Below the pieces are notes generated by a model. The model worked only from the letters and a program-made list of their open reading frames with translations, had not been told where the DNA came from and ran no database searches. Made by a program: the position numbers and the translations under genes. A stretch of 63,634 bases of DNA from Proteobacteria bacterium UBA6921 (GTDB lineage: Bacteria; Pseudomonadota; Gammaproteobacteria; SG8-11): the NCBI GenBank assembly GCA_002450895.1, contig DKAR01000036.1, forward strand, positions 236-63,869, written 5' to 3'. Positions 6,255 through 43,223 of the stretch are shown in pieces; position 1 is the stretch's first letter; each line of letters starts with the position of its first letter.

Positions 6255-6256
6255 AC

Positions 6257-12595: not shown

Positions 12596-12746
12596 CCCTT
12601 TTGGCCGTTGCGGTCGCGGTGAATCGGAATCGTCGACGCCGCGACCGCCTTCACGAAGCAAAGATTTGTTGCCTTTCGCAACGTGAATGTCGGTTGGAAT
12701 TTCGAAGTTGAAGAGTCATCCAACAATCTTGAAACAGGAGTCCATC

Positions 12747-17782: not shown

Positions 17783-18391
17783 ATGGCGACAGAATTCAGC
17801 GCGGATACACAGCCGTTCGCAACAGCAGTGTCATTGCATGAGCGGGGCGAGTGGGAAGCGGCGGCGCAGGCGTATCATCACGCCTTGGCGGTCGATCCAT
17901 CCAATATCGAAGTGTTGCACGGCGCGGGCATCCTCGCGTTACAAGTCGGTGATTTTTCGACCTCCGCTGAATTGCTCCGTCGTGCCGTCGTAAACGGTTC
18001 CCACGAACCGGACACCTATATGTTGCTGGGCCGTGCATTGAAGTCCGGCGGTGATCTTGATGCGGCGCTGGAAAACTTTTTTCACGCAATCTCGCGAGCC
18101 CCGGATTGGGCCGACGCCTATGTGCAGATCGGAATCGTGTTTCGGATGCAGAATCGCATGGCGGAAGCCGAAGTCGCGTATCGACAGGCTCTCGCGCTGA
18201 ATGCGAATTCCGTTGAAGCGCATATCAATCTGGGCAATGTGTTGCATCTGCGTGGTGATCTCGAAGCCGCCGTGCGTCATTACGAAATCGCGTTGGAGTT
18301 ATCACCCCAGTCCGAAACCGCGGCCACCAATCGCGACATCACCCTCAATGCGCAAGCCTATGCGCGCGGCGTGAATCCCGTACCGGCATGA
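17783..18391 (+). CDS. Tetratricopeptide-repeat protein, translationally coupled to tpsA
   Basis: Several 34-residue TPR units (for example AYVQIGIVFRMQNRMAEAEVAYRQALALNANSVE and AHINLGNVLHLRGDLEAAVRHYEIALELSP). Its TGA (18389-18391) overlaps the TpsA ATG (18388) as ATGA. Confidence 0.7.
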   Translation: MATEFSADTQPFATAVSLHERGEWEAAAQAYHHALAVDPSNIEVLHGAGILALQVGDFSTSAELLRRAVVNGSHEPDTYMLLGRALKSGGDLDAALENFFHAISRAPDWADAYVQIGIVFRMQNRMAEAEVAYRQALALNANSVEAHINLGNVLHLRGDLEAAVRHYEIALELSPQSETAATNRDITLNAQAYARGVNPVPA

Positions 18392-21300: not shown

Positions 21301-24300
21301 GCGGGTACCGAGCTGAGCCCGCGCCAGCAAAATCTGGTACTCGACAGCGGCTATCGTTCCAGTGCCAGCGGCGCGGATCTCCGGACATTCAGCCATCTCG
21401 AAGAGCGTCCTGCGGAATCACGACGTGCGACGGATCTCACACTCAAGAGCAAATCTGAATTGCGCATTGAGTCAGGTGCGGTGATCGAAGCGGATGCGGG
21501 TAGCAAAGTCAGCCTCAGTTCAACCGACCGCATCTATGTTGACGGCACGGTACAGACGCACGGCGGAAGTATCGCACTCACCGTCAGTGACTATGCCGGG
21601 GGCGATGATGTCGTCGCCAATCAAGCGATCTGGCTGGGACAGAATGCGCGTCTTGATGTCAGCGGTACGACGCTGTTGCAACCCAGTCCCATCGGTCTGC
21701 GCGCCGGCACCGTTTACGACGGCGGAACAGTCAGTCTCACCGCCAACGCCGGATATGTGATCGCCGAAAGCGGATCGCTAATTAACGTGCCCGGGACGCA
21801 GGCCACGCTGGATCTTCCGGATGGCAACGGCGGATACACCGCGGTTGACGTGGGCAGCAATGCAGGAACGGTGCGAATCAAAAGCGCCGAGGGTGCGGTG
21901 CTGGAAGGTTCCATGGAGGGCCACGCCGGATCGGCGACGGCGCTCGGTGGCACGCTCGCGGTCACCATTGATGCCAACAATCGCGGCGAGCCGGGCGAAT
22001 TCACGCTCACCGCGGACAAGAACCACTTCTCTCACGACGATCGCGTGATCGAGGTAATTGACGATGTCGCCCAAAGCGCACTGAGCGGAACGACCTATGA
22101 AACATTCGGCGCCGCGTTCAGTGCACCGGACGCCGGCCACGCCGGTGTGTCGACGGTTCGCACGACAATGCTCGATCAAGGCGGGTTCGACGCACTGGAA
22201 CTTACTGCAAAAAATTTGCGTACGATTCCGGATCAATCGAACGACAATCAGGTGGATCTGCGCGCGTACGGTATTGTTCGAGTAGAAAGCGATCTGAATC
22301 TGGACCGACGCCTGGTTATCGATGCGCCCACGCTGGATGTCGCCGCCGACAGCGTCGTACTCGGTGCAGCCTATGTGGCCATCGGCTCACGGGAGGGACT
22401 GCTGACCGAGAGCGCTCCGACCACCACGTCGGATCATTCACTCACGGTCAATGCGCAGTGGTTGGATGTTGTCGGTCACAGTTCAATCATCAATACCAAC
22501 GACATCGCGCTGCACGCCGAAAGTGATTTGCGCCTGCGCCCGGTACCGTCGACAAATCTGGAAGACAATGCGCTTGCAATGACTGGTTCGTTGACGGTCG
22601 CGGGCCATCTCGAGTTGCAGGCCGACGTTGTCTACCCGGCCACGTTCACCGACCTTACGATCACCGCCAAGGACACGGCCGCGCCCGGTTCGATTACCGT
22701 ACTTCCCGGCGACGAAACGCACGGCGTCCTGTCGGCCGGTGGCGCGCTGCATCTCGTCGCCAATCAGATTGATCAGCGTGGTGTTTTGAAAGCACCGCTC
22801 GGCGTGATTGACCTGCAGGCGCACGGAACTGAGGCTGTGCCCGGAAATTTGGTGCTTGCCGAAGGAAGCGTAACGTCCACGTCGGCCGAGGGTCAGGTGA
22901 TTCCGGCCGGGCAGTCCGAAGGTGGCTTTGACTGGGTGTACAATATCAACAGCCAGACAAAACTTTTGTTCGGAGGCGAATTTGATCCCGTGCCGCAACA
23001 AAGCATTCAGTTGGGCGGCGACAACGTCGCGCTGAACGATGGCGCCAAACTTGATGCGTCCGGCGGCGGTGACCTGCAGTTGTACGAGTGGGTCAATGGC
23101 CTCGGTGGGTCGCGCGATATTCTCGATCCCGCGGTTTCGCCGCTCAGCTTTGCGGTCCTTCCGACCTTCGGCGAGACGATTGCGCCCTGGGATGAGCACG
23201 AGTCCGGTGCGTTTACTTCCAAATCTGTCGGGACGACGGTTTACCTCGAGGGTGTCGCCGGATTGCCAAGCGGTGAATATGCGGTACTGCCACCGCGTTA
23301 CGCGTTAATGCCCGGCGCCTATCTCATCACCGAGTTGCCGAATCTGCGCGATCGACCGGCCGGTCAGACCGGCATGCTGATCAACGGAACGCCGATCACC
23401 ACCGGTTACTTCGGCGTCGCCGGGACCGAGCAGCGCGAAGATCGCACGCGCGGATTCTCCGTAGTTTCGAGTGAATTATTGCGTGATGCCAACGATCCAC
23501 ATCGTCCGGCAGAGTACACCCTGACGCTCGCCAGTGAGTTCCTGGCGCAGCAGGCCGCCGACGGCGCGGTGGTCGGACGAATGCCGAACGATGCCGGCGT
23601 GGTTTCGATCGCCGCCGAGGATTCGCTGAATTTGCAGGCGCAGCTCATCGGCAATGCGGCCAACGGTGGTCGCGGTGCCGGCGTCGATATCGCCAGCGCC
23701 AATCTGGTGGTGACTGCCGATGGCGCCGGCGCTGCGGACGGCGGAATTCCAATATCCGCTGATGTATTAAATGGCCTGGGTGCGGAAAGCATTTTCCTCG
23801 GTGGCCGACGCAGCGAAGGCGCTGAAGGAACCGAACTGAATGTCATCAGCAACAACGTCACGATTGCCAGCGGTGCGAATCTAGTCGCACCCGAACTGAT
23901 CCTCGCTGCACGCGACACCGTCGTGCTTGCCGACGGCGCGACCGTCTCCGGCGCAGGCGAATCAAATCAGGAAGGTTCGAACTACGTTGTCAATGGCGAC
24001 GCAGCCATCATGCGTGTCAGCGGTGGTGCGCAAAGCGAACTGGTGCGCCATGCCGCATCCGGAAACGCCGGGTCGATCGATGTCGCGAGCGGCGCAACCG
24101 TAGCGGCGGACGGATCCGCGCTGTTCGACGTCAGCAAGAATCTGAGTTTCGCTGGAAACATCGATGTGCAAGGGGCTTCGCTGGCCGTCGGCGCTGCGCA
24201 GATCAATCTGGGAGATGTGCCGGCGAATACCGAAGGCTTTAACCTGGCATCGTCGACGTTGATCGGAATCAATGCCGACGAATTGCGGCTCAACGGACGT

Positions 24301-27300
24301 CAGTCGATCAACGTGTTCAGCGCCCCGATTATCGAGGCGCAGCGGCTGGTTCTGGATACGCCATTGCTTGAAGCGCGTGCCGGTAGCAGCGATGCAGTGA
24401 CCCAGGTTCACGCCGATGAAGTGATCCTGCGGAATTCGACCGGCAGTGCGGTCAGCTCGAATCCATCGGCACAAACGCACGGTTCGTTGCAGATCAGTGC
24501 GGGCAATGCGGACGCGGCGGGCGAGATCGAACAGGGTCAGGGCACAGTCACGGTTGCCGGATTCGATGCGGTTAAGCTGACTTCGACCGGCGCGATCTAC
24601 GGGCGCGATACCGGCACACTCAATACCGGCGCCGCCGATGTCACGCTGGATGCCGGCGTGATCAGCGGTCATCGTGGCTCGGAAACGACGATCACCACGC
24701 AAGGGCGCGTCGACATCGCCGCGTCGAACACGGCGTCGTCCGCGCTGGCGGACGACGCAATCGGCGCGACGCTGTCCATCAATGCGGACACAATCCATGA
24801 CGACGGCCGAATCGTCATGGCGTCGGGTGCTGTGAATCTGCATGCCACAGGTGCCTACGGTGTGACACTCGACCCGAACGGCGTCATCGATGTGAGCGGT
24901 GTCGTGCGCGACTTCACCGTAACGACGCGCCCTTCACCGGGCGGTAACGTTGAGATCGTCGCAGACTCCGGCAATATCACGCTCAACGCAGGCTCGAGTA
25001 TTTCCGTCGCCGGTGCGGTGACTGCCGACGGTCTCGGTGCCGATGCCGGAAGCCTGACGCTGCGCGCACCGCAAGGAACAGTAAAAGTTGAAAGCGATCT
25101 GGACGGCAGCGCGCAAAGCGATCAGCGCCAGGGACGCGCAACGATCGACGCGCGTCGTATCGACAACCTCGCCGCATTGAATCTCGCGCTGAACAATGCG
25201 GCATTCAATGACGAACGCGTATTGCGAATCCGGGAAGGTGACGTCGACCTGGATACGGACATCACCGCGCATCGCATCGACATCACAGTTGATGGCGGCG
25301 CACTGACAGTGGGAAATCAAAACGCAAACGTCACCCTCGACGCCAGCGGCAACGAAGGCGGACACGTGCGTCTCGCTGCGCGCGACGACGTGCAGGTGAG
25401 TTCCGGCGTGACCATCGATGCCAGCGGTAGTGAAGGCGACGGTGGCAATGTTGAGCTGATGAGTTCGGAAGGCGTGGTGCAAACGGAGCAGGGCAGCACC
25501 ATCGACGTGTCGCACGGTTCCGAAGGTGACGCACAAGACGGCGAAGTTCACGCGCGCGTCAACGAGAGCGTGTTGCTTCCGCTGGCCAGCGGTGGCACGT
25601 CAGCAATGGAATTGAAGGGAACCGTGATCGGTTCGCCGGTGATCGTCGAAGGCGTGCATGTCACCAGTCTCGACAGCGTCGGCGGTGTCATTGGCGATGC
25701 TGAAATTGCCAACGCGCGCGGCAGCGCGGATGCGTTTATGGCCAATGCGACACCGATCGAAGCGGCGCTGGAGAAATACGGCACCGATGTCGAACTTCGT
25801 CCTGGCGTGGAACTGGTTTCCAGCACCGACCTGACACTGAATACGCCATGGGATCTGATCGATTGGCGCTATGGCGGCGCGCCTGGTGTTTTAACACTGC
25901 GTGCCGCCGGCGATGTGAATATCAATCAAACGTTGTCCGACGGAATGATGTTCGACTGGATTGCGTATGCGTCGCTGCCAGCGGCGGGACCCTCGTGGAG
26001 CTACAGGATCGCCGCCGGCGCGGATCTGGCCAGTGCATCTCCGTTCGGTCTTGCGGCGTCGAGCGAACGCACCCGGACGGGAAGCATCGCCATTGCACCC
26101 GGCTATGTTGGCACGAGTATTTACGATCCGACGGTGCAAACCGCGGTGCGCACCGGAACGGGCGATGTCGAAATGGCGGCGGCGGGGAATGTCGAACTCG
26201 GCAATGCCGCCTCGGTGATCTACACCGCCGGGACTCCGGTCAGCGGAATCAGTGCGTCCATGCGTGAATCGCTGGACTACATCTGGGGATTCACCGCCGC
26301 ATTTCCCGAAAACGGCGGCGATATCATCGTGCGCGCGGGCGGTGACATGACGGGCGCATCAAGCCACCATCTCGTGACCGAGTGGCTATGGCGCATGGGA
26401 TCCGATGCTGCGACGACCGGCGAAATGCCCACGGCCTGGGGAATACAGTTCGATCAATTCACCGACGGCATCGGTGCATTGGGTGGCGGCAACGTCACAC
26501 TTGTTGCCGCGCGCGACATTGACAACGTCTCCGCCGCCATTCCGACGGTGGGCGTTCCATTGGGAGCAACGCCTGCGGACAATGAGCTGCACGTCACCGG
26601 CGGTGGCATACTGCGCGTCGAAGCCGGACGGGATATCTACGGCGGGATGTACTTTGTCGGTGCTGGTCAGGGAATGTTGGCGGCCGGCGGTGACATTGCG
26701 CGTGCCGCGGGCGACAGCAACGGCGCGTCGTATTTGAAAATCGCCCTCGGCGATGCGGAAGTCGGCGTCAGTGCGCGGGGCTCCATTGATGTGGGGTCAG
26801 TGTTTAATCCCACGATCATTCCGCAAAGCCAGTCGGCGGGTGCCTATGGTTTCGATCCAACCATCGACTTTCTGACCTACCAACCCGACAGTCGTGCCGA
26901 TTTCACGGCGATTGCTGGCGCCGTCCACTATCACGACAGTGCCGATGCGACGGTCAATGATGCCAGGGACGGGCTTTACGGCGTCAACGACTATACCGTT
27001 CAGGCAGAATTGCTGCGCATGTTGCCACCGACGCTTACGATGCAGGCGCTCGGCGGTGATATTGTCGTTGGCGGAACCGGCGCGGACAACGGATCGGGCA
27101 AGATTCTGAAACTTGCACCCGCCGTGTCCGGACAACTCGAGCTGCTTGCCGAGGGTGACGTGCGCTTGTACGACGGGATCCTGCTGTCAGATACGAATCC
27201 GGAAAATCTTCCCACGCCGGAGGCGCCGGGCCGATTTTTCCCGGCGTCCAGCGATTCGCTGCTGACACAACTCTTTGCAGAGTATTCGCCGCAGTTTCGA

Positions 27301-28818
27301 TCGCTCGATGCACCATTGCACGCGAACGATGCCGGCGATCCGGTGTTCGTCGTCGCGCAGCACGGCGATCTGGACATGACGACGTGGACGAAGCAATCCT
27401 TTAAATCCGGATTGTGGCTTGCGAAGTCTGCCGAGATCGTGGCGGGACGAGACATTCTTGATCCGGACATCGCGATTCAACACGCCAATGTCGGCGATGT
27501 GAGCCAGATCGTGGCCGGACGCGATATTCGTTATGAGACCGAACGTGACTCGAAAACGCGGCGCATCGTTCCCAAAGGAATTGCCAGCCAGAAAAGCATC
27601 GTCGTTGATGGTCCCGGCGAGGTACTGGTTTCCGCCGGTCGCGATGTCGATCTGGGGGCGTCCAGTGCCGGTATCCTGACCCGCGGTGATGTCGTCAATC
27701 CGGCCTTGGCGGATAACGGAGCCAACCTGACGGTGCTTGCCGGTATTGGAACAGGCGCCGACTACGCCACGTTCATCGATACATACATCAACGGTCGTGA
27801 CGATTACCACGATGCATTGATCGCCTACATGCAGTCGCGCGGCGCGCTTGTCTATACCTACACCGACGCCGTTGCCCAATTCGATGTGTTGAGTCGATCC
27901 GAGCAAATGCCGTTTCTCGAACGCATCTTGTTCACGGAAATGCGTATTGCCGGGCGGGATGCGGCGACGAGCGGCAGCGGCGATTACTCGCGTGGGTACA
28001 CGGCGATCAGCGCATTGTTCCCGGATCCCGATGCACAAGGCCGACTCGCGCTGTATTTCAGTCGCGTCTATACCCTCGACGGTGGCGATATCAATCTGAT
28101 GGTGCCCGGTGGGGAAGTGAACGTGGGATTGGCCGCGCTCCCGACGTCGTTCGGTATCACCAAGAAGCCCGAAGAACTGGGTATCGTGACGCAGAGCACC
28201 GGCAGCGTGAATATCCTCGCGCGTGACGATGTGCTGGTGAACACGTCGCGCGTCTTCGCCGGGGATGGCGGGTCCATTCTGATCTGGTCATCCGAAGGTG
28301 ACATTGATGCGGGTCGCGGCGCCAAGACGGCCATCTCCGCGCCGCCGCCGGAAATCACTGTGGATCCGGCCACCGGACAAGCCAAGATTGTCTACAAGGC
28401 CGCGTTGAACGGCAGCGGCATTCGCGCGTTCGTTACCACGGAAGGTCGCGCTGCTGGTGATGTCGATTTGTTCGCACCGAGCGGCGTCATCAATGTGAAC
28501 GATGCCGGCATTGGTTCGGCCGGCAACATCACCATAGGCGCCACCGAAGTGATCGGGTCCGACAACATCGACGTCGGTGGCGTCGCAGTCGGTATTCCGT
28601 CCGTCGATACGAGCAGCCTGTCGTCCTCGTTGTCCGGCGTTGCCGCCGCGGGCGCGACCAAGAGCGCTGAACAAAATGCGAGCGACAGCGCAGGCGCTTC
28701 CGACAAATCGACAACGCCTATCGCAGACGCCGCCGTCAGCTTCCTTGAAGTGGAGGTGCTCGGTTTCGGCGAAGACGACGAAGAAGAAAAGAAAAAACGC
28801 GAGCAGGAATCCAAGTAG
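18388..28818 (+). CDS. Giant TpsA exoprotein (filamentous haemagglutinin family, 3476 aa)
   Basis: An extended N-terminal signal region is followed by a TPS domain (VLNWSSFNIGADAAVNF...AINKIV...ANGQIYLINPNRIVFG...GGLVASTLEL). Thousands of residues of Gly/Ala/Ser/Asp-rich beta-helix repeat follow. A conserved C-terminal region reads GGDINLMVPGGEVNVG...GGSILIWSSEGDIDAGRGAKT...GDVDLFAPSGVINVNDAGI. The tail is charged (GEDDEEEKKKREQESK). Confidence 0.9.
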   Translation: MSHSVVNQSLTARAQARPGKRRLPPEFRMRRCFALTLSAMAAIACAPSHVSAEPANTALPTACGNGNCGGKQWVTLGSASASVQNNQMNVVVQGQTAVLNWSSFNIGADAAVNFQQDNATAVAINKIVTENPTEIFGQLTANGQIYLINPNRIVFGKTAKVDVGGLVASTLELTDEALKDGIAGAIHNLGPDGKPVPAFVATYDSSGHVVNGDIEIQQGASLKSADGGRILVFAPNVVNRGDINTPNGQTILAAGSKIYLAAAQADGNREDSDVAGLVVEVDVSEINNDELTKFLHGETTQLLLGSVNNYGSINADVGNISLVGLAVNQSGRVTAKTSVRRNGTILLRAGDGIAAGNVGANGGNLSNYSPRGGLVTLGAGSVTEIIPDSADTSATADVVEQPKSRIDLRGHSVHLLGDAHVTATSGDVTITAQQDPSQTLATQADNDSRVFIDDGAVIDVSGAAVSLSADRATVTVQLQSEQLKDSPEQRDSVVKGEYVTVDIRQTGVNADGSTWVGTPLADITGAIQAVNRTVDERSVEGGTITIRSQGDVIVSAGATLDISGGRKDYEAGVIHTTKLVSDGKLYDIGAADPNRHYDGIAGQYTQSSAKWGQSKTWSMLGEVGTYSAAFTQGADAGQLNIDTSRMILDGKVRADVVKGDYQNDSQSRPGNVSEDVWSELPSSMAAQGTFVFGNTAQDTEPVHRYRGDDVVIEEQQLLSQLKDSGFDPTRDALPETLDHITIRPSLFSSDGVGSASIRSSETVTVAAGANVQMNAGSSLQLIGSTVTIDGNVSATGGNVSALAVKTGTNSLNEGHDVTLSHGASIDVSGSWVNDDPLIAGSTRDQRWINGGSVQLEAKLGNIVMESDSSIDASGSAWLKSDGKIKAGSGGKIDIVTESDGTSVTLDGELSAYGMSRGGSLSITTANSICISTGVCDGLAKESVLTLVPDFFQQGGFGSYSLTSKFGGLVVAAGTELSPRQQNLVLDSGYRSSASGADLRTFSHLEERPAESRRATDLTLKSKSELRIESGAVIEADAGSKVSLSSTDRIYVDGTVQTHGGSIALTVSDYAGGDDVVANQAIWLGQNARLDVSGTTLLQPSPIGLRAGTVYDGGTVSLTANAGYVIAESGSLINVPGTQATLDLPDGNGGYTAVDVGSNAGTVRIKSAEGAVLEGSMEGHAGSATALGGTLAVTIDANNRGEPGEFTLTADKNHFSHDDRVIEVIDDVAQSALSGTTYETFGAAFSAPDAGHAGVSTVRTTMLDQGGFDALELTAKNLRTIPDQSNDNQVDLRAYGIVRVESDLNLDRRLVIDAPTLDVAADSVVLGAAYVAIGSREGLLTESAPTTTSDHSLTVNAQWLDVVGHSSIINTNDIALHAESDLRLRPVPSTNLEDNALAMTGSLTVAGHLELQADVVYPATFTDLTITAKDTAAPGSITVLPGDETHGVLSAGGALHLVANQIDQRGVLKAPLGVIDLQAHGTEAVPGNLVLAEGSVTSTSAEGQVIPAGQSEGGFDWVYNINSQTKLLFGGEFDPVPQQSIQLGGDNVALNDGAKLDASGGGDLQLYEWVNGLGGSRDILDPAVSPLSFAVLPTFGETIAPWDEHESGAFTSKSVGTTVYLEGVAGLPSGEYAVLPPRYALMPGAYLITELPNLRDRPAGQTGMLINGTPITTGYFGVAGTEQREDRTRGFSVVSSELLRDANDPHRPAEYTLTLASEFLAQQAADGAVVGRMPNDAGVVSIAAEDSLNLQAQLIGNAANGGRGAGVDIASANLVVTADGAGAADGGIPISADVLNGLGAESIFLGGRRSEGAEGTELNVISNNVTIASGANLVAPELILAARDTVVLADGATVSGAGESNQEGSNYVVNGDAAIMRVSGGAQSELVRHAASGNAGSIDVASGATVAADGSALFDVSKNLSFAGNIDVQGASLAVGAAQINLGDVPANTEGFNLASSTLIGINADELRLNGRQSINVFSAPIIEAQRLVLDTPLLEARAGSSDAVTQVHADEVILRNSTGSAVSSNPSAQTHGSLQISAGNADAAGEIEQGQGTVTVAGFDAVKLTSTGAIYGRDTGTLNTGAADVTLDAGVISGHRGSETTITTQGRVDIAASNTASSALADDAIGATLSINADTIHDDGRIVMASGAVNLHATGAYGVTLDPNGVIDVSGVVRDFTVTTRPSPGGNVEIVADSGNITLNAGSSISVAGAVTADGLGADAGSLTLRAPQGTVKVESDLDGSAQSDQRQGRATIDARRIDNLAALNLALNNAAFNDERVLRIREGDVDLDTDITAHRIDITVDGGALTVGNQNANVTLDASGNEGGHVRLAARDDVQVSSGVTIDASGSEGDGGNVELMSSEGVVQTEQGSTIDVSHGSEGDAQDGEVHARVNESVLLPLASGGTSAMELKGTVIGSPVIVEGVHVTSLDSVGGVIGDAEIANARGSADAFMANATPIEAALEKYGTDVELRPGVELVSSTDLTLNTPWDLIDWRYGGAPGVLTLRAAGDVNINQTLSDGMMFDWIAYASLPAAGPSWSYRIAAGADLASASPFGLAASSERTRTGSIAIAPGYVGTSIYDPTVQTAVRTGTGDVEMAAAGNVELGNAASVIYTAGTPVSGISASMRESLDYIWGFTAAFPENGGDIIVRAGGDMTGASSHHLVTEWLWRMGSDAATTGEMPTAWGIQFDQFTDGIGALGGGNVTLVAARDIDNVSAAIPTVGVPLGATPADNELHVTGGGILRVEAGRDIYGGMYFVGAGQGMLAAGGDIARAAGDSNGASYLKIALGDAEVGVSARGSIDVGSVFNPTIIPQSQSAGAYGFDPTIDFLTYQPDSRADFTAIAGAVHYHDSADATVNDARDGLYGVNDYTVQAELLRMLPPTLTMQALGGDIVVGGTGADNGSGKILKLAPAVSGQLELLAEGDVRLYDGILLSDTNPENLPTPEAPGRFFPASSDSLLTQLFAEYSPQFRSLDAPLHANDAGDPVFVVAQHGDLDMTTWTKQSFKSGLWLAKSAEIVAGRDILDPDIAIQHANVGDVSQIVAGRDIRYETERDSKTRRIVPKGIASQKSIVVDGPGEVLVSAGRDVDLGASSAGILTRGDVVNPALADNGANLTVLAGIGTGADYATFIDTYINGRDDYHDALIAYMQSRGALVYTYTDAVAQFDVLSRSEQMPFLERILFTEMRIAGRDAATSGSGDYSRGYTAISALFPDPDAQGRLALYFSRVYTLDGGDINLMVPGGEVNVGLAALPTSFGITKKPEELGIVTQSTGSVNILARDDVLVNTSRVFAGDGGSILIWSSEGDIDAGRGAKTAISAPPPEITVDPATGQAKIVYKAALNGSGIRAFVTTEGRAAGDVDLFAPSGVINVNDAGIGSAGNITIGATEVIGSDNIDVGGVAVGIPSVDTSSLSSSLSGVAAAGATKSAEQNASDSAGASDKSTTPIADAAVSFLEVEVLGFGEDDEEEKKKREQESK

Positions 28819-28836
28819 TCCGTATCGCGGGGTGTC

Positions 28837-29376
28837 GTGGTGCGCAGTCCTTACTCAACCGGTCGCGAAGTCGCGTCGTTCGTCCTGATATTCGCAGGAT
28901 GTTTCGTCGCGATGCAGCTCACGTACACACTGGCACGCGAGTATGACGTCGTCGAGCGCGCGGTGGTTGATATTGCGACCGTGTTGCCGAGTGCCCACAT
29001 CATTTCCGCGCTTACGCCTGACGAGCAGGTGCGTGCTGAAGGCGCGCGACTGATTTCTCCCAACGTGCGCCTGTCCGTGCTCAACGGATGTGAAGGCACC
29101 GAGTGCCTGCTGTTGTTGTTCGCAGCAATCATTGCGCATCGCGCCGCCGCTCGCGACAAGGCAGCGGCTCTCGCGGCGGGATTTCTGCTCGTGTATGGCA
29201 TCAATCAGATGCGCATCGTCACGCTGTTCTATGTGGTCCGTTATCGACACGACTGGTTTCCGATATTGCATGGATATATCGCGCCGCTGTTCGTCACGGG
29301 TGTCGCCGCGGTATTTTTCTACGTCTGGGTTGCCTGGGTCGCGCGACGGTCTTCGTTTTCACGGAATGTGTCATGA
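28837..29376 (+). CDS. Short exosortase/archaeosortase-family protein (XrtH-like size class)
   Basis: 179 aa with about 5 TM segments. The family catalytic landmarks appear in order: Cys in VLNGCEGTECLLLLFAAII, Arg in YGINQMRIVTLFYV and His in PILHGYIAPLF. The gene starts 19 nt after the TpsA stop. Confidence 0.55.
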   Translation: MVRSPYSTGREVASFVLIFAGCFVAMQLTYTLAREYDVVERAVVDIATVLPSAHIISALTPDEQVRAEGARLISPNVRLSVLNGCEGTECLLLLFAAIIAHRAAARDKAAALAAGFLLVYGINQMRIVTLFYVVRYRHDWFPILHGYIAPLFVTGVAAVFFYVWVAWVARRSSFSRNVS

Positions 29377-30032
29377 AGCCGGTGCTGATCCGGGGAATCT
29401 GCGCGCTGGTTGTGCTGTTGTCCGCGGGGTATTGGTCGGCCGGAACTGTGGCGGCGCATCTGCTTCCATTGATGCAGTTTTCCATTCACCTGCTATTGCC
29501 GGATTTTGACGTTGTCCATCTTGGCGTCGAGCAGCCTGCGGGAGAAGCGTTCGTTGTTTTGACGGTTGAAAACGTGCGCCCGCTCTTTGTTGGTCGTTTC
29601 ATGCCGGCCGGAAATCTGTTTGATAGCTCTACGCTCGCCGCCCACGTCATGCTGCCGGCGATTGTGTGTTTCACCCTGTTAGTCACATGGCCAGTCAAAA
29701 CCGCAAGCATCTTGATGGCGCGATTGCTCTGTGGTTTGGCTGTATTGATTCTGGAGATTCCACTGGATGTTCCCGTGGTGTTGTCCGGAGCGATTGTCGA
29801 TTTTTTGACCGCGGCAAATCCCTACGCGAGCGGCGCCCCGCCCGCGGTGGTATTGGCGATGAACGTCCTCAATGGCGGTGGTCGCCTGCTGTTGGGTGTT
29901 GTGGCGGCGGCGAGCGCTGTCGTGCTGGTCCATGGGGACTCCTCGCCTGTCGCGAAAGATTCATCAAATCTTCACGAATCTTTTAAGAAAACACGCCATA
30001 GTCCGGATCGCAGTCGCCCTTCGCAGGGATAA
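29373..30032 (+). CDS. Polytopic membrane protein coupled to the exosortase-like gene (possible exosortase-associated partner)
   Basis: ATG 29373 overlaps the upstream TGA (ATGA). The product is 219 aa with 4-5 hydrophobic helices and begins MKPVLIRGICALVVLLSAGYW. The track ORF start at 29103 is over-extended into the upstream gene. Confidence 0.45.
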   Translation: MKPVLIRGICALVVLLSAGYWSAGTVAAHLLPLMQFSIHLLLPDFDVVHLGVEQPAGEAFVVLTVENVRPLFVGRFMPAGNLFDSSTLAAHVMLPAIVCFTLLVTWPVKTASILMARLLCGLAVLILEIPLDVPVVLSGAIVDFLTAANPYASGAPPAVVLAMNVLNGGGRLLLGVVAAASAVVLVHGDSSPVAKDSSNLHESFKKTRHSPDRSRPSQG

Positions 30033-30277
30033 ACGGCGGCCGCATGCGAGCGGGATGCTCGCTCCATATGCCTAAGGCACTGTTGGCTGTACCTCCCATA
30101 AGAAAGCGCGGGCGGCGTGAGCGCGCCGCCCGCCGAATAACACCTTCCCGGGCCCTCCCGTCGCTGTCACGGAACTGCAATACGTCCCGCCGATAATTCG
30201 TCCGCGCCGCGCGTTACAACCCGATGCGATGTTCCGCGGACGTTGCAGGCTGGCCCGAATCAACCAAGGACACTTTC

Positions 30278-32092
30278 ATGGCAAAACGACTCGCCGCGAC
30301 ACTCTTCCTGTTTTGCCTGGTTCCCTCGCTGGCACAGGCCTGGTGGAATGACAGCTGGGATTTTCGAAAACAGATCAGTATCGATACCAGTGTGACCGGC
30401 GCCGACATCAAGGGCGCGGTCAGCAATGTTCCGGTGCTCGTGCGCCTGCATACCGGAAACTTTCCGTATTTCAAGGACGCAAAGCCCGACGGTTCCGACC
30501 TGCGTTTTGTCGCCGGCGATGACAAAACGCCTTTGAAGTTTCATGTTGAAAGCTATGACTCGGTCAATGAGATCGCATTGATCTGGGTCAAGGTGCCCGG
30601 CGTACAGGGTAACAGCACCAGCGAAAAATTCTGGATGTACTACGGAAACGCGGATGCGCCGGCGGCGCCTGATGCCGGTGGCACCTGGGATACCCAACAA
30701 GCGCTGGCGCTTCATTTCGATGCGGACGCGGGTGCGCCGCAGGATCGCACCGCGTACGGCAATCACCCCGCCAGTTCGACGGCCGTGCGCAATCCCAATT
30801 CGCTCATCGGCGGCGGTGTGCGTTTCAGCGGCAGCGAGTCGATTGCCATCAATCCGTCGCCTTCGCTGTTGATGAAACCGGAATCGGGCTGGACTTTCGC
30901 GGCATGGATCAAGCCCCAGGGACCGCAACAGGAAACTGCCTTGCTGTACAGCCGCGACGGCAATGCCTCGCTGATGTTCGGAATCAAGGACGCGCGTCTG
31001 TTCGCACGCTATCGCAACGCGGACGGAAAGGTCGCAGAGATTCCGGCGGATGGAACGCTGAATCTCGGAACCTGGACCCACGTCGCGATGACGCTGGGCG
31101 CGGGACGCATTGCCATCTTCATTAATGGAAACGAAACAGCGTCGGCGAACGCGGTCCTTACCGAGAAGGGCGGCAAAATTATTATCGGCGCCAGCGAAGG
31201 CGCCAACTTCTTCATCGGCGAAATGGATGAAGTGGAAATTTCGAATATTGCGCGCAGCGCGGACTGGATCAAGCTCGCCGCGCGGGGTCAGGGTGCGGAA
31301 GGCACGCTGCTGCATTACGCGGAAGACGAGCAGAACAAGGGCGGTGGCGGAACGTCGTACTTCTCGGTCATTCTCCAGAACGTCACGATCGACGGTTGGG
31401 TGGTGATCGTTCTGCTGGCCGTCATGGCGGTCATAAGCTGGGTGGTGATGTTCGGCAAGGGCGTCGTGATCAATCGCGTGCGCCGCGACAATCGCGCGTT
31501 CCTGGATCAGTTCAAGAAGCTCGGCGCGCGTGATCCAGATGCGCTGGATGCAAAAGACTCCGAGGACGACAAGGAACTCGCCGGATCTCCGCTTTCGCAG
31601 GCGCTGTTTGGAAAGCATGATCATTTCCAGAGCTCGGCGCTCTATCACATCTATCACACTGGCATTCAGGAACTGCACTATCGCGTTGGCAAGGCGGTCG
31701 GAGCGCAGGCCGCCGGACTGTCACATCAGGCCGTGGATGCAATCCGTGCGTCGCTGGATGCCGCGGTCGTGCGTGAAACACAGAAGCTGAACAGCCAGAT
31801 GGTGTTGCTCACGATCGCCATTTCCGGGGGGCCGTTTCTCGGACTGTTGGGCACGGTCGTGGGCGTCATGATCACGTTCGCCGCGATTGCGGCCAGCGGT
31901 GACGTCAACATCAATGCCATCGCGCCAGGCATCGCGGCAGCTCTCGTTGCCACGGTCGCCGGACTCGCCGTCGCGATTCCTGCACTGTTTGGTTACAACT
32001 ACCTGTTGTCGCGGGTCAAGGAATGCGTCGCCGACATGCAGGTGTTCGTGGATGAGTTCGTAACGAAACTGGCGGAACACTACGGGCGCTAA
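30278..32092 (+). CDS. exbB: Fusion protein: signal peptide, DUF2341-like and LamG/concanavalin-like domains, then a C-terminal MotA/TolQ/ExbB proton-channel domain
   Basis: Signal peptide MAKRLAATLFLFCLVPSLAQA. The DUF2341-like N-terminus reads WWNDSWDFRKQISID...VPVLVRLH...GSDLRFV...LKFHVESYD. The LamG-like segment reads WTFAAWIKPQG...LFGIKD...WTHVAMT...IFINGNE. The ExbB core reads LLTIAISGGPFLGLLGTVVGVMITFAAIA...IAPGIAAALVATVAGLAVAIPALFGYNYL. Confidence 0.8.
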   Translation: MAKRLAATLFLFCLVPSLAQAWWNDSWDFRKQISIDTSVTGADIKGAVSNVPVLVRLHTGNFPYFKDAKPDGSDLRFVAGDDKTPLKFHVESYDSVNEIALIWVKVPGVQGNSTSEKFWMYYGNADAPAAPDAGGTWDTQQALALHFDADAGAPQDRTAYGNHPASSTAVRNPNSLIGGGVRFSGSESIAINPSPSLLMKPESGWTFAAWIKPQGPQQETALLYSRDGNASLMFGIKDARLFARYRNADGKVAEIPADGTLNLGTWTHVAMTLGAGRIAIFINGNETASANAVLTEKGGKIIIGASEGANFFIGEMDEVEISNIARSADWIKLAARGQGAEGTLLHYAEDEQNKGGGGTSYFSVILQNVTIDGWVVIVLLAVMAVISWVVMFGKGVVINRVRRDNRAFLDQFKKLGARDPDALDAKDSEDDKELAGSPLSQALFGKHDHFQSSALYHIYHTGIQELHYRVGKAVGAQAAGLSHQAVDAIRASLDAAVVRETQKLNSQMVLLTIAISGGPFLGLLGTVVGVMITFAAIAASGDVNINAIAPGIAAALVATVAGLAVAIPALFGYNYLLSRVKECVADMQVFVDEFVTKLAEHYGR

Positions 32093-32134
32093 CGCGCTCG
32101 CCTGACTCCCGTCAACGCATATCAGGACCCGACA

Positions 32135-32539
32135 ATGCGCGCGCAAACCGAAGCCAATCTTTACGACGACATCAACATCACGCCGATGCTGGATCTGGCG
32201 TATGTGTTGTTGGTGATCTTCATCATCATGACGACTGCCACCGTGCAGGGAATCAAAGTCAATCTGCCGAAGGCCAGCGCGACGCCGAGCCTGCACAAGC
32301 CGCAGACCAAGGCGATCACCATTTCTCAGGACGGAACCATCTTTCTCGATACATACCCGGTGACGCTGAACGAGCTTGAGGCGCGACTGCAGAGTTACAA
32401 GGCGGTGAACCCGGATCTACCGGTCATTGTGAAAGGCGACGCGTCGATTCAATACCAGCGCGTTATCGAAGTCCTGGATTTGCTCGGTCGCCTGGAGATC
32501 ACGCAGCTCGGACTCGTGACCCAGCGCGTTGTTAAATAG
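32135..32539 (+). CDS. exbD: Biopolymer transport protein ExbD/TolR
   Basis: 134 aa. N-terminal TM motif INITPMLDLAYVLLVIFIIM and a periplasmic domain with ...ITISQDGTIFLD...VIVKGDASIQYQRVIEVLDLL. Confidence 0.85.
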   Translation: MRAQTEANLYDDINITPMLDLAYVLLVIFIIMTTATVQGIKVNLPKASATPSLHKPQTKAITISQDGTIFLDTYPVTLNELEARLQSYKAVNPDLPVIVKGDASIQYQRVIEVLDLLGRLEITQLGLVTQRVVK

Positions 32540-32559
32540 TTGATGATCGGCCGCGTCTC

Positions 32560-33219
32560 ATGACCACGCGCGCGCATTACAAAAAATACCTGCCCCAAAT
32601 AGCAGGCGGGACACTGGTCGTTGCGGTGCTTGCCGGTCTGATTGCGTTCATCCAGCACATGCTGAATTCATCGACACCGATCGGTAAAAAAGCCGTTCAA
32701 CAAATCACGCTGCTGCAGCCGCCACCGCCGCCGCCACCCCCGCCGAAAGTTGAGGAACCGCCGCCGGAGCCTGAAGTCGTCGAAGACAAAACGCCCGATC
32801 CAGATCCACAACAGACAGACAACACGGCGGATGACGTCCCGCCGGGCACGGATCTTGGTCTCGACGCTGACGGAGGTGCCGGCGGCGATCTGTTCGGTCT
32901 GGTCGGGCGCAAGGGCGGTCGTGATCTGATCGGCAGCCGCGGCAGCATGGAGGCGTGGTATGCGAACGTCATCAAGTCTGACGTGCAGGATCTTCTTTAC
33001 GAAGATCCCGCCGTGCGCAAAAAACGTTACGCCGTCGATGTGCGTTTCTGGATCGATCCGGAAGGACACGTAAAACGTTTTGAGTTGCTGCGAACGAGCG
33101 GCGACCGCGATATGGATGGCGCGCTGAAAACCGCGCTGCGAAATTTTTCCAAGGTGCGTGAACGTCCGCCGGAGGAATTGCCACGTTCCTTCACGATCCG
33201 CATCACATCACGTCTTTAG
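32560..33219 (+). CDS. tonB: TonB-family energy transducer
   Basis: N-terminal TM anchor (GGTLVVAVLAGLIAFI), a proline-rich spacer (PPPPPPPPPPKVEEPPPEPE) and a TonB-C-like domain (YAVDVRFWIDPEGHVKRFELLRTSGDRDMDGALKTAL). Confidence 0.7.
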   Translation: MTTRAHYKKYLPQIAGGTLVVAVLAGLIAFIQHMLNSSTPIGKKAVQQITLLQPPPPPPPPPKVEEPPPEPEVVEDKTPDPDPQQTDNTADDVPPGTDLGLDADGGAGGDLFGLVGRKGGRDLIGSRGSMEAWYANVIKSDVQDLLYEDPAVRKKRYAVDVRFWIDPEGHVKRFELLRTSGDRDMDGALKTALRNFSKVRERPPEELPRSFTIRITSRL

Positions 33220-33228
33220 GAATTCGCC

Positions 33229-35037
33229 GTGCAGGCACGATTTCTGGAAACACAAAAAAAGGAACGACTTGTGATTTCAAAAGGGCATACAACGAAAATA
33301 ATACTGGCCGCATTTTGTATGGGGTCGTGGTCGCTGCTCTCGAGTGCCGCAGAAATCACCACGCCGCCGCCTGCGCCCGAACCGGGCGTGACGCCGGAAC
33401 AACCCAAGCCGGAGGCGTCGCCCGCCGACCAAGCCATGCCCGATGTTTCGCCGGAAACCCAGCGCGAGGCGGAGTCACTGGTGAATGCGGTGAAAAAACG
33501 CGTTGCGAACGAAAACCAGCAGGCGCCGCTGCCGCCGGCGGAAACCAATGCGATCCGCGTGACGCATGTTCCGGAAACCATCAAGAACGAGATTCGCGAA
33601 CAGGTCAAAGCGGAGTTGCACGATCAGATCGTGCAGGATGTCTTCACGCAGGCGCGCAATGAACAGTGGGGTTTGCCGCAGGCGCTGCCATCGTGGGTGA
33701 ACAAGTTTTCGCTGAAGGGTGATATGCGCCTGCGCGAGCAGGGGGACTATTTCGACAGCGGGAACATCGGTTGCAACATCAGCGACGGGTATGTTGACTT
33801 TAATGTCGTAAACGCCAAGGGTGGCGTCGGTAAAGCCGGCCTGGATCGCTGTATCAACACAACAGAAGATCGCCAGCGTCTGCGCACCCGTGCCCGGCTC
33901 GGGGCGGATGCAAAAGTGAACGACACGTTGAAAGCGGTGCTGCGAATAAGCACCGGCAACACACGCGATCCGGTATCCACCAATCAGACGCTTGGCAATT
34001 ATGGTGGCCGGTACGGTGTGGTGTGGGATGAAGCCTATTTGCGCTACGACGGTATGGACCTGGATCGCTTTCCCTGGCTGACGCTCTATGGCGGGCGCAT
34101 GGCGAATCCCTGGCTGTCGACTGATCTCGTTTGGGACAACGACCTGGCGTTCGAAGGCCTTGCCGGGACGATGCGCTTCAATTTGCGCGGGTCGGGAAAT
34201 TTGCTCGACATGAATGAACGGGACCGAATTCTGTTCCTCACTGTCGGTGCATTCCCGTTGCAGGAAGTCGAGCTATCAAAACGGGACAAGTGGCTTTATG
34301 GCGTTCAGCTGGGGACGGATTTGATCTTTCTTAACCAGTCTACGCTGCGAATTGGTCTCGCGTACTACCACTACGAAAACATTACCGGAGTGCGCAATTC
34401 ACTCGATTCCGTGGACTATGACTTTACCGCACCGGGGTATGTGCAAAAAGGCAATGGCCTGTTCGATATCCGCAACGACGACTCAACGTCGGATCCTCTG
34501 GGGAATTCGGATTATTGGGCGCTGGCCGCGGACTACAAACTTGCGGACCTCACCATTCAGTACGACAGTCTCGCACTCGCGCCACATCACATTGTTACAA
34601 CGATCGACGTGGTCAAGAACATCGGGTATGACAAGGGTGAAATCTGGAAGCGCACCAACGGCAATGGCGTGCAGTATGCCGGCGGATTTGCGACCAATGT
34701 GGGCGCGAGCGATTCCGAAAAAGCCGCCGCGTCCGTCAAGGAACGCTCGCTCGGATATCAGGTGATGCTCAGCTATGGATGGCCGATTGTCGCGGAGCGC
34801 TATACGTGGCGGGTGCACGGTGAATATCGTTACCTGCAACGCGACGCGGTGCTGGATGCGTTTACCGATTCAGACTTTCATCTGGGCGGCACGGATGCCA
34901 AGGGGTGGATCATCGGCGGCGACTACGCCATCGACGAGAACACTGTATTGTCATTCCGATATTTGACTTCCGATTCGATCGACGCCGCGCCGTTGTCGAT
35001 CGATTCCGTTCAGCTGGATCTTTCCGCCAAATTCTGA
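33229..35037 (+). CDS. Outer-membrane beta-barrel (putative porin family) with a Pro-rich, helical N-terminal extension
   Basis: Signal peptide ...SWSLLSSAAE, then a PAPEPGVTPEQPKPE linker. Alternating beta-strand sequence follows (FSLKGDMRLREQGDY..., LRTRARLGADAKVN, VLRISTGN, GYQVMLSYGW, WRVHGEYRYLQRD). The C-terminal residue is aromatic (...LDLSAKF). The exact start is uncertain (GTG 33229). Confidence 0.5.
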   Translation: MQARFLETQKKERLVISKGHTTKIILAAFCMGSWSLLSSAAEITTPPPAPEPGVTPEQPKPEASPADQAMPDVSPETQREAESLVNAVKKRVANENQQAPLPPAETNAIRVTHVPETIKNEIREQVKAELHDQIVQDVFTQARNEQWGLPQALPSWVNKFSLKGDMRLREQGDYFDSGNIGCNISDGYVDFNVVNAKGGVGKAGLDRCINTTEDRQRLRTRARLGADAKVNDTLKAVLRISTGNTRDPVSTNQTLGNYGGRYGVVWDEAYLRYDGMDLDRFPWLTLYGGRMANPWLSTDLVWDNDLAFEGLAGTMRFNLRGSGNLLDMNERDRILFLTVGAFPLQEVELSKRDKWLYGVQLGTDLIFLNQSTLRIGLAYYHYENITGVRNSLDSVDYDFTAPGYVQKGNGLFDIRNDDSTSDPLGNSDYWALAADYKLADLTIQYDSLALAPHHIVTTIDVVKNIGYDKGEIWKRTNGNGVQYAGGFATNVGASDSEKAAASVKERSLGYQVMLSYGWPIVAERYTWRVHGEYRYLQRDAVLDAFTDSDFHLGGTDAKGWIIGGDYAIDENTVLSFRYLTSDSIDAAPLSIDSVQLDLSAKF

Positions 35038-35048
35038 GGAGGCCCGTT

Positions 35049-35717
35049 ATGCAAACTCAACTTGTCTATCTTGCCGCTGCTTTGATCATGCTGGTATCCA
35101 CGGCCGGAAACGCCGAGACAGCGCGTCGCGAATCGGGTGGCGCCGATAGCGCCGCATTGCTTCGTGCACAAGGGCAGGTACGCGAAATGGCGGCGCAGCG
35201 CGACGCCCTCGCCGCCGAGAATGAAAAGCTCAAGGATGAAATGAAGAAGAAGTTGGAGGAAAAAGACGCAAAGATTGCATCGATGAACAAACGAATGGAT
35301 GCAATGCAAAACAGTTCAGAGCGATCGGACGCCGTCGCTGAAAAAACACGGGAAGTGAATCAGGCCATGCGCGACCGGATCCTCGAAACCCAGGAAAAGA
35401 TGCAGAAGCTGGTGGACAAATACAAGGAATTGGTTGCCGCGCTGCGGGTAATTGAAGACGAGCGTACGAACCTGCAAAAGACGGTTGCGCAAAAGAACTC
35501 CGAAATCGACAGCTGCGCCAACAACAACGTGACGCTCTACAACACCAGCCTGGAACTGATCGACCGTTACGAAAACAAGGGCGTATGGGATGCGATGCTG
35601 GAGAAGGAGCCGGTGACCCAGCTCAAGCGCGTTGCAATGGAAAACGCCGTACAGGATTACCGAAACCGCGTTGAATCAGCAAAGGTTGAAGTTCCGGACA
35701 GTCGCCTTTCCAACTGA
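35049..35717 (+). CDS. Secreted coiled-coil protein
   Basis: ATG 35049 with signal peptide LAAALIMLVSTAGNAE, then about 150 residues of heptad-like, charged sequence (AAENEKLKDEMKKKLEEKDAKIASMNKRMDAMQ...). It starts 11 nt after the porin stop. The track ORF start at 34905 is over-extended. Confidence 0.55.
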   Translation: MQTQLVYLAAALIMLVSTAGNAETARRESGGADSAALLRAQGQVREMAAQRDALAAENEKLKDEMKKKLEEKDAKIASMNKRMDAMQNSSERSDAVAEKTREVNQAMRDRILETQEKMQKLVDKYKELVAALRVIEDERTNLQKTVAQKNSEIDSCANNNVTLYNTSLELIDRYENKGVWDAMLEKEPVTQLKRVAMENAVQDYRNRVESAKVEVPDSRLSN

Positions 35718-36152
35718 CCGCTCTCGAAATGCGAGTGTGGGATATTTAAAGGTCGCCGGACCACCTGTCGGCAAGAAATGCGTCGGATGCTATTGGCATC
35801 GTAGGTGCCGATGTGATCGGACCGTATTACGTTGCTCAATGCATTTCGAAATGCCCTCGTAGTTCAAATGCAGGACCCCTCCCGGGTTTGGTCACACTTG
35901 ATTCAAAGAAGCGTCATTGACACCCCGTAAAACATCGCGTGCCGGGTGGGACGAGAATGCGCCGATCCAACCTCGCGCGATAGTCGCAAAACCGTTCGCG
36001 CGCACAAGTTTCCACCGGCAGGTCTTTTGCGCCGCACGATTCTGCAGATCGGGCGCTGCGATGGGCGAAGGAGTGTGGGCGATGATGTTTGTGGTGCCCT
36101 GCAAGGCACCACGTCGCATGTGCGGACGCAGGGTAAACATGGAGAAGGCACT

Positions 36153-36842
36153 ATGCTCCGAAAAAAAATCATCCCGGTCTTGTTGTGCGCAGGAATGGGT
36201 CCAGTCGGCGTTGCTCAAGCAACGGCGGTGTCGTATTACATGGATCAATCCAATGTTGCCAACGCGCCCGCGATCGCTGACGGCACCGCGAATTTTCTGC
36301 AGGTGACGATCGACGACGAAGGTGCAGCCGGTTACATCAATTTCACCGTCAGTGTGCTTCCTGCGCTGGGCAGTCTGGCAGGCAGCAATTTTGGTATTGA
36401 AAAGTTTTCGTTCAACGTGACCAGTGCAGGCGTGTTACCGTCGGATTCGGGCTGTACGCCCGGGCCGTCGTGTACCGACTGGTTGCTGCCCGCCGGGTGG
36501 TCGGCAAATACGCCGCCGCCACCCAACCAGAACGATGGTTTCGGAAAATTCGACGTTGAAGTTTCCGATGGTGGCACGGCGCGGCAAACGACGTTGCAGT
36601 TTTCGTTTGCCTCGACGAACACGTTGGCGATGTTGCTGGATCCGTCGGCAAATCCCGCCGCTGAAGGCAATGCGTATTTTGCCGCTCATGTCGCAGGATT
36701 CAGCACGACAGACACGTCGAACAACATTGTGACGAGTGCTTATTTCGGAGCTACCGACTTGTTGTCGGTTCCCGTTCCGGCACCGTTGCTGTTGCTGGGT
36801 TCGGCGTTGTTGTCGCTGATTCGGTTCCGTAAAAAACAATAG
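36153..36842 (+). CDS. Small secreted protein with a PEP-CTERM-like (VPxP) C-terminal sorting tail
   Basis: ATG 36153 with signal peptide MLRKKIIPVLLCAGMGPVGVAQA. The C-terminus is LLSVPVPAPLLLLGSALLSLIRFRKKQ. The track ORF start at 35946 is over-extended. Confidence 0.65.
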   Translation: MLRKKIIPVLLCAGMGPVGVAQATAVSYYMDQSNVANAPAIADGTANFLQVTIDDEGAAGYINFTVSVLPALGSLAGSNFGIEKFSFNVTSAGVLPSDSGCTPGPSCTDWLLPAGWSANTPPPPNQNDGFGKFDVEVSDGGTARQTTLQFSFASTNTLAMLLDPSANPAAEGNAYFAAHVAGFSTTDTSNNIVTSAYFGATDLLSVPVPAPLLLLGSALLSLIRFRKKQ

Positions 36843-43189: not shown

Positions 43190-43223
43190 CCAAAAGAACG
43201 AATACACCAAGGAGGAGCACGCC

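Follow-up and report, generated by a model that had tools for sequence, protein, structure and literature searches.

An XrtM-like miniature exosortase and its coupled membrane partner between a giant TpsA gene and an ExbB-TonB module in a gammaproteobacterial contig

Exosortases process Sec-exported proteins that carry a C-terminal motif, a helix and a basic tail, and by what route their cargo then gets past the outer membrane is described as unclear (PMC12188702). Though widespread, these enzymes have seen little experimental testing. Here we analyze a stretch of 63,634 nucleotides from Proteobacteria bacterium UBA6921 (contig DKAR01000036.1), hereafter called the window, in which the genes of a 179-amino-acid exosortase-like enzyme and of a 219-amino-acid membrane partner are wedged between a giant tpsA gene of two-partner secretion (TPS) and an exbB-tonB module. 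The enzyme family is already known; what is new here is its partner family, so far undescribed, and the uncharacterized module next to the pair. We consider it reasonably probable that the XrtM-type enzyme and its co-translated partner constitute a sorting unit for IPTL-like cargo encoded elsewhere in the genome, and that a local rearrangement placed them between tpsA and exbB.

Archaeosortase A (ArtA) of Haloferax volcanii is an experimentally studied member of the superfamily, which cleaves a C-terminal tripartite signal and has been linked to lipid anchoring (PMC7157517). Unlike the window enzyme, it is archaeal and larger and recognizes the PGF-CTERM signal; the window enzyme scores only 21.4 bits on its model. 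A 2018 study of ArtA in Molecular Microbiology reportedly found the conserved Cys and Arg to be essential. XrtA/EpsH with its PEP-CTERM cargo and XrtD with its VPLPA-CTERM cargo have the same catalytic core signature as the window protein, and the window contains XrtA-system exopolysaccharide (EPS) genes as well as VPLPA/PEP-CTERM-like cargo. These enzymes are, however, full-length (486 positions for the XrtD model TIGR04152 and 486-522 for the XrtD, XrtW and XrtJ models, against 179 amino acids here). Full-length exosortases often carry an EpsI domain.

Three miniature systems come closer. XrtH and its IPTL-CTERM cargo (TIGR04177, TIGR04174, NF033207) resemble the present system in enzyme size, in cargo of relatives that matches IPTL_CTERM and in signals that are sometimes located mid-protein; they differ in that the window enzyme remains below the XrtH cut-off (56.5 versus 86 bits) and that no IPTL-type tail occurs within the 63.6-kb window. 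XrtF of Flavobacterium johnsoniae is also a mini-exosortase encoded beside a membrane partner, the 'exosortase F system-associated protein' (Fjoh_1448/1449), and deleting either gene causes the same surface-colonization and biofilm defect (PMC10936215; PMC12188702). For an obligate two-gene unit, this pair offers the best precedent in functional terms, and by analogy a two-subunit logic may also apply to the XrtM-like pair. It belongs to Bacteroidota, however, and the window enzyme scores 52.9 bits on the XrtF model, whose cut-off is 90, with a partner that matches no associated-protein model. The window protein matches XrtM (TIGR04300) best among the subfamily models, as do six representative relatives (58-116 bits for the latter, all under the XrtM and XrtH cut-offs); the 150 positions of the XrtM model indicate a similar size, and a locus labelled XrtM by the Joint Genome Institute (JGI) combines the same partner family with IPTL-like cargo. 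The likeness ends with the sub-cut-off score of the window protein and the lack of cargo adjacent to the window pair. A literature search on XrtM and IPTL found no paper, so that there is no documented XrtM partner or signal for comparison.

The two genes of the pair are the following.

28837-29376, plus strand: XrtM-like miniature exosortase, GTG start, 179 amino acids, above the TIGR04178 cut-off, with invariant C85, R126 and H145

29373-30032, plus strand: translationally coupled membrane partner, 219 amino acids, start overlapping the enzyme stop as ATGA

The enzyme matches the NCBIfam exosortase/archaeosortase signature TIGR04178 at 46.4 bits (E 3.6e-12, cut-off 23), which places it in the superfamily, and its match to exosortase models is far above chance. 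Among the subfamilies, XrtM ranks first at 89.8 bits (E 2.3e-25, curated cut-off 125), ahead of XrtH, XrtX (55.2 bits, cut-off 170) and XrtF; the XrtA and XrtD models are absent from its NCBIfam matches. The Pfam model Exosortase_EpsH (PF09721) aligns only over its last ~100 positions, at 19.3 bits, below the threshold of 25.7. The original prediction, made from the nucleotide sequence, had thus recognized the right kind of enzyme and misjudged its class, which it had matched by size to XrtH. It had also named the landmark strings, which do occur in order within the open reading frame (ORF): LNGCEGTEC with C85 (codon 29089-29091), INQMRIV with R126 (29212-29214) and ILHGYI with H145 (29269-29271). 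Only 17 close homologues were found in the protein database, four of them bearing the JGI label XrtM; in the alignment of 17 sequences the three residues are invariant, and every family-invariant enzyme residue is kept in the window ORF.

An AlphaFold2 model of the enzyme (predicted local distance difference test, pLDDT, 92.5) has helices at 9-34, 37-59, 86-100, 105-136 and 138-178 and a three-strand beta-hairpin at 66-80, with C85 at the start of helix 86-100. Read from the sequence with the positive-inside rule, the topology would comprise four transmembrane (TM) helices, an interfacial helix and a periplasmic beta-hairpin, with both termini inside; Cys85, Arg126 and His145 would then lie at the periplasmic face of the inner membrane. 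Comparison with solved structures gave no sequence match in the PDB and no fold match with E <1. The public gene call takes an internal ATG as its start (28912; 154 amino acids) and drops most of the conserved first TM helix (28837-28911). Because F19 and F23, both invariant, and a first helix modelled with confidence precede this ATG, the 179-amino-acid form is to be preferred. The enzyme, which begins 19 nt beyond the last base of the TpsA stop (28818; 18-nt spacing), is the only exosortase-like ORF of the window, with no second partner either. The xrt-partner-exbB order is present in three independent metagenome assemblies, the longest of which (L078) also has tpsA upstream, and is therefore not an assembly artefact. 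By its sequence, then, the ORF is an intact XrtM-type miniature exosortase, a new and presumably catalytic member of a known family.

Relatives were gathered by scanning one genome per GTDB species, which yielded 76 loci (Gammaproteobacteria, Betaproteobacteria and two Desulfobulbus) whose neighborhoods were examined over 10-kb flanks; the window organism lies outside this set, and the best match to its enzyme is 53% identical. The clade, with at least 76 species, appears as a fixed two-gene unit. By tblastn, the partner lies directly downstream of the enzyme in 41 loci. An ORF of ~200-230 amino acids follows the enzyme in about 70 of the 72 loci with room for one, and single-linkage clustering of blastp matches puts 61 of the 76 loci in the group of the window partner. 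In all 61, a possible partner start is found between -41 and +23 nt from the enzyme stop, with a 4-nt overlap in 15 of them. The start distance and the ATGA overlap noticed in the original prediction are both present, as is the coupled membrane partner, which turns out to be evolutionarily conserved: it is an undescribed and unnamed family that accompanies XrtM-like genes almost everywhere, directly downstream in at least 61 of the 76 species loci.

The partner is predicted to have about four TM helices and a beta-rich stretch after the first. Its conserved motifs are STLxGH, AWP, LDxPxVL and GGGR, and every one of the near-invariant residues is kept in the window. Exhaustive phmmer searches (E up to 0.001) delimit a family of 264 clusters at 50% identity, nearly all of ~200-220 amino acids. 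No Pfam or NCBIfam model matches it, the associated-protein models included, and all named homologues are called 'hypothetical'. A diverged exosortase paralogue or the split half of one was considered for the partner and set aside, as homology between the two families is not detectable (hhalign probability of the partner profile against the enzyme profile, 1.2%). The order of secondary-structure elements is similar in the two proteins; the partner model, built from a single sequence, is too poor to use (pLDDT 48.5).

Another membrane family of ~202 amino acids (P0062 and others) that weakly matches the partner profile was likewise discarded as the partner: it adjoins an aminotransferase gene with no exosortase beside it. 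Members of this family lie beside a 550-amino-acid class-III aminotransferase gene in L081 (6001-6609), L082 (5341-5949) and L042 (6220-6855). In L042 the ~202-amino-acid protein comes directly after the mini-exosortase and replaces the usual partner.

A C-terminal signal recurs in the 76 loci, composed of the motif D-[VI]-P-[TFL]-(L)-P-x-W-[GA], a hydrophobic helix and basic residues, hereafter the I-type signal. Searched by regular expression, 48 of 75 loci contain it, with a median distance to the pair of ~125 bp. With a hidden Markov model (HMM) made out of 53 tails of relatives and a threshold of at least 15 bits, it is present in 56 of 76 loci; of the 55 in which the distance was measurable, 48 have it no more than 500 bp from the pair. 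Usually one dedicated cargo gene is found directly beside the pair. The cargo comprises S8 proteases, leucine-rich repeat proteins, prenyltransferase-like repeats, DNRLRE domains, metallophosphatase/5'-nucleotidase and LTD/endonuclease proteins. Two of these proteins reach the cut-off of TIGR04174 IPTL_CTERM (33.2 and 21.8 bits versus 20.5) and others fall just under it, so that the IPTL signals that the original prediction associated with enzymes of XrtH size have proved relevant. Which variant of the motif occurs depends on the clade of the enzyme: gammaproteobacterial clades have IPTLPEWG or IPFLPxWA, and many betaproteobacterial ones have DVPLPxWAL. In the JGI-labelled XrtM locus (L106), the enzyme is accompanied by a partner 33% identical to that of the window (E 9e-26) and by an S8 protease with the tail DVPTLPQWGVLLL..KR. 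The partner family is thus common to both neighborhoods, and the adjacent IPTL-like cargo of L106 is missing in the window. Since the signal adjoins the pair in most relatives, enzyme, partner and neighboring cargo can be read as a dedicated system, and proteins of the IPTL-CTERM-like type are the likely substrate class of the family. A single neighboring cargo also offers clean, testable enzyme-substrate pairs.

In five loci the I-type signal is located mid-protein, with 77 to ~1900 residues after it, and resembles 'midcut-by-XrtH' proteins; the ORFs concerned are L057 11169-14747, L076 5998-11031, L068 2283-4526 and 5033-9835, L067 11233-17463 and one in L077. Two copies of the system occur in some genomes: L010 (2292-3180 and 9956-11168) has an additional partner gene together with a fragmentary ORF of the enzyme, and Methylocaldum sp. 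GT1BB has two separate loci (L006 and L032), each with its own IPTL-like cargo.

In the window, as the original prediction had noticed, the I-type signal is missing. Scanning the six-frame translation with the I-tail HMM gave a maximum of 7.7 bits, for the VPLPA tail of the protein at 11744-12595, versus at least 38.9 for true members, and a loose regular expression for I-type tails agreed with this result, its one match being the DPLW tail of the following gene.

7231-9558, plus strand: adhesin-like protein of 775 amino acids, tail SGAFDPLWLIALMALTWKRRR followed by 18 further residues, the only loosely IPTL-like tail of the window

This protein combines a lactonase-type beta-propeller, DUF11 and Big_9/cadherin repeats. 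It could be a local substrate with a shortened IPTL-like signal (P-L-W, helix, KRRR), as the ends in P-L-W of some I-type tails (L017, L025, L038 and L040) and the regular-expression match would suggest. We hold this to be very unlikely: the tail has no match to the I-tail HMM, only ~11 hydrophobic residues separate its W from KRRR, and its gene lies 19 kb from the pair where true cargo is typically within 500 bp. The tail fits best the GlyGly-CTERM model, the signal of rhombosortase (14.9 bits, cut-off 15.5), a score that hints at a rhombosortase substrate.

The absence of I-type cargo could also mean that the pair is an orphaned remnant, left with no current substrate after the adjacent cargo gene was lost in a rearrangement. 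No other locus examined has the pair in such a place, and the branch of the enzyme is long, in agreement with such a fate. Both ORFs are nevertheless intact, the family-invariant residues and the ATGA coupling are preserved, and local cargo is also missing in about a quarter of the relatives; a remnant is highly improbable. Those cargo-less loci are scattered over the enzyme tree, which argues against a clade that switched specificity. Because the window lacks cargo while both ORFs keep their conserved residues, the simplest reading is a working enzyme whose substrate gene probably lies in another part of the genome.

In the mechanism that we propose, enzyme and partner would form one sorting enzyme. 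Cargo exported by Sec would be tethered in the inner membrane by its tripartite signal (motif, helix, basic cluster), the Cys would attack at the motif, and the mature protein would be released or passed to an acceptor. The conserved residues of the partner are predicted to lie at the periplasmic face of the membrane, where they may help to bind the signal or to present the acceptor. The location between tpsA and exbB would be a local rearrangement within a recurrent island of cell-surface genes, with no mechanistic coupling to TPS.

Several observations weigh against this proposal. No cognate I-type cargo lies within the 63.6 kb, which makes the distant substrate an assumption. The enzyme could have changed its specificity, since it falls below the XrtM cut-off (89.8 versus 125 bits) and occupies a long branch in the tree of relatives. 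Three relatives (L009, L010 and L013) have no local I-type cargo yet have VPLPA-type cargo nearby; no other tail types were found in them. Finally, six relatives of three classes have the TPS/ExbB-TonB module described below at no more than 10 kb from the pair, which is estimated to be above chance.

The original prediction had also reported three V/T-P-x-P tails besides the DPLW tail, all of which are present in the window.

11744-12595, plus strand: VPLPA-CTERM protein with a VPVP tail (TIGR03370, 29.2 bits versus cut-off 25.35)

35946-36842, plus strand: module protein with a VPVP tail, PEP-CTERM/VPLPA-like cargo (PEP-CTERM 13.7 bits, below threshold; THxN family 21.3 bits)

43083-43730, plus strand: protein with a TPLP tail, with no family match

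The suggestion that the enzyme processes this local VPxP cargo is not supported by the comparison. Under this alternative, the mini-exosortase would have been recruited to the VPLPA/PEP-CTERM-like proteins of the island, perhaps as the EPS locus has no full-length XrtA or XrtD of its own. The presence of three such genes in the island speaks for it. Nine relatives also have VPLPA-type tails at most 7 kb away from the pair, L024 and L034 directly beside it, the three loci with V-type and no I-type cargo nearby have been mentioned above, and the two types of motif have a common skeleton, [VI]-P-x-(x)-P-x(1-3)-W. The EPS locus of the window (44-63 kb) encodes an XrtA-system chain-length determinant, a tyrosine kinase, Wzy, Wzx and glycosyltransferases, and up to the right end of the window it contains no exosortase or XrtA, as had been noted before. 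The position after the tyrosine kinase is occupied by a GHL10/LamG gene; in L085, the sole contig that reaches past the tyrosine kinase, a full-length XrtA/XrtW/XrtD-like exosortase comes next.

Other loci point the opposite way. V-type tails accompany the TpsA-ExbB module with no mini-exosortase in L084, L087, L090, L094 and L095, and an XrtA-type EPS locus (Wza-like protein, chain-length determinant, tyrosine kinase) directly follows the module in L084, L085, L094 and L095. The V tails reach only 7.7 bits on the I-tail HMM, and VPLPA-CTERM is assigned by the name of NCBIfam TIGR04152 to XrtD, which is not among the matches of the enzyme. Relatives with no I-type cargo form no clade, and the EPS locus runs past the end of the window, so that XrtA may be just beyond. 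Recruitment of the mini-exosortase to VPxP cargo is therefore unlikely in our estimate. Because the tails follow the module in loci with no mini-enzyme and the module adjoins XrtA-type EPS loci, the VPxP proteins are better assigned to a full-length exosortase, probably encoded outside the window. For annotation, this keeps the VPxP proteins, and TpsA as discussed below, from being wrongly attributed to the mini-exosortase.

The genes of TPS and of the neighboring module are as follows.

9599-11284, plus strand: TpsB, ShlB/FhaC-type Omp85 transporter (POTRA_2 56.6 bits, ShlB 56.5 bits)

18388-28818, plus strand: giant TpsA-type exoprotein, 3476 amino acids (Pfam TPS 71.8 bits, DUF3739 115.1 bits), no C-terminal sorting tail

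30224-32092, plus strand: ExbB/TolQ-type proton channel with N-terminal DUF2341 and LamG (TolQ and ExbB models match)

32135-32539, plus strand: ExbD/TolR (family matches)

32560-33219, plus strand: TonB-family protein (family matches)

33229-35037, plus strand: Porin_5 (PF16930) outer-membrane protein, 523 bits

34905-35717, plus strand: conserved module protein with weak matches to coiled-coil proteins, true start probably near 35040

The enzyme gene directly follows tpsA, with no terminator-like site between them, and the module is found near the pair in six relatives. One could therefore imagine that enzyme and partner act on or with the TPS exoprotein, for instance in the maturation or anchoring of TpsA, which would account for the spacing of 18 nt and for a co-transcription that is likely. 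We regard this as extremely improbable. The acidic/basic tail of TpsA lacks a helix, and the protein has neither a tripartite signal nor an IPTL-like motif, terminal or internal; an action on the TPS system, as once suggested, is not supported. The enzyme is absent from the tpsA-exbB junction in all other cases seen (L012, L024, L052, L073, L089, L090, L092, L094 and L095), and TpsA is missing from the 10-kb surroundings of 70 of the 76 enzyme loci. Sec takes TPS substrates over the inner membrane and TpsB over the outer one, and they are not known to need a sortase; both points count against a role of the pair in TPS.

The genetic link between TPS and an exosortase that the original prediction had pointed out does exist, and is not general. 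Six of the 76 enzyme-anchored loci have the TpsA-ExbB-ExbD-TonB-Porin_5 module less than 10 kb away from the pair: L012 and L073 (Desulfobulbus), L024, L034 and L022 (Gammaproteobacteria) and L052 (Hydrogenophilaceae). Even at one module per genome, chance would give ~0.6 of the 76 loci with a module, and six would thus be a real enrichment. The arrangements differ among the six loci and the pair is wedged between tpsA and exbB in none of them, so that conservation of the tpsA-xrt-partner-exbB order in relatives was not borne out. Conversely, in 23 metagenome loci anchored on the ExbB gene, enzyme, partner and I-type tails are all absent. TpsA directly abuts ExbB in L012, L024, L089, L092, L094 and L095; in L090 a VPVP-tail gene lies between them. 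With these counts, the pair does not co-occur with TpsA/TpsB as a TPS component would. The adjacency to tpsA is unusual, and the link is no obligate association: in a minority of genomes, pair and module share a cell-surface island. In L009, TpsB and TpsA lie 7 kb from the pair.

The module, which lies beside an XrtA-type EPS locus in four of the loci examined, may be relevant to the passage of exosortase cargo over the outer membrane. In a wider and quite unlikely scenario, the XrtM-type pair would have been drawn into the tpsA operon as part of an envelope-spanning pathway for surface proteins. The mini-exosortase would free tail-anchored cargo at the inner membrane, possibly including the VPLPA/PEP-CTERM-like proteins of the module; the DUF2341/LamG-ExbB, ExbD, TonB and Porin_5 proteins would power its passage over the outer membrane; and the cargo may finish on the giant TpsA fiber. 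If true, this would be the first candidate for the missing outer-membrane step of exosortase cargo export. Our preferred reading remains the sorting unit for distant IPTL-like cargo, with the position of the pair set by local rearrangement. Insertion of the pair as a mobile element was considered and rejected, no flanking repeats being found.

The spacer of 191 nt between the partner gene and exbB contains a further element.

30108-30133, no strand assigned: GC-rich hairpin with a perfect 10-bp G+C stem, GCGGGCGGCG..CGCCGCCCGC

Its T-rich run belongs to the minus strand alone, which has no gene there that could be terminated. The hairpin may mark the end of a tpsA-xrt-partner transcription unit.

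The module itself, at 18388-36842 in the window, is conserved and uncharacterized, and is also present in L084, L085, L087, L089, L090, L092, L094 and L095. Its gene order is TpsA (DUF3739), ExbB (DUF2341 and LamG), ExbD, TonB, Porin_5 and a conserved protein of small size, after which a gene with a VPLPA/PEP-CTERM tail often comes. The function of DUF2341 is stated as unknown (PMC12505986). Homologues of the 34905-35717 protein come after Porin_5 in all module loci, and a homologue of the 35946-36842 protein comes after TpsA in L022. The TpsB gene of the window lies 7 kb upstream of TpsA, from which it is separated by the VPLPA-tail gene, the gene of a 519-amino-acid protein, several ORFs with no family match (two of them on the opposite strand) and the gene of a tetratricopeptide repeat (TPR) protein. 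In L009, TpsB comes directly before TpsA; in L087 it comes directly before ExbB, with no TpsA between. The secreted 519-amino-acid protein (12687-14246) has no Pfam or NCBIfam match and recurs in L026-L028, L009, L002 and L087. It adjoins the enzyme pair in the Thiobacillus loci and directly follows the VPLPA-tail gene in the window, L009 and L087. At the left end of the window, the minus strand carries housekeeping phosphate genes (1507-7090), which from the look of their sequences we take to encode a long PstC-like permease, PstS, PhoR and PhoB; the surface-protein island starts at ~7.2 kb.

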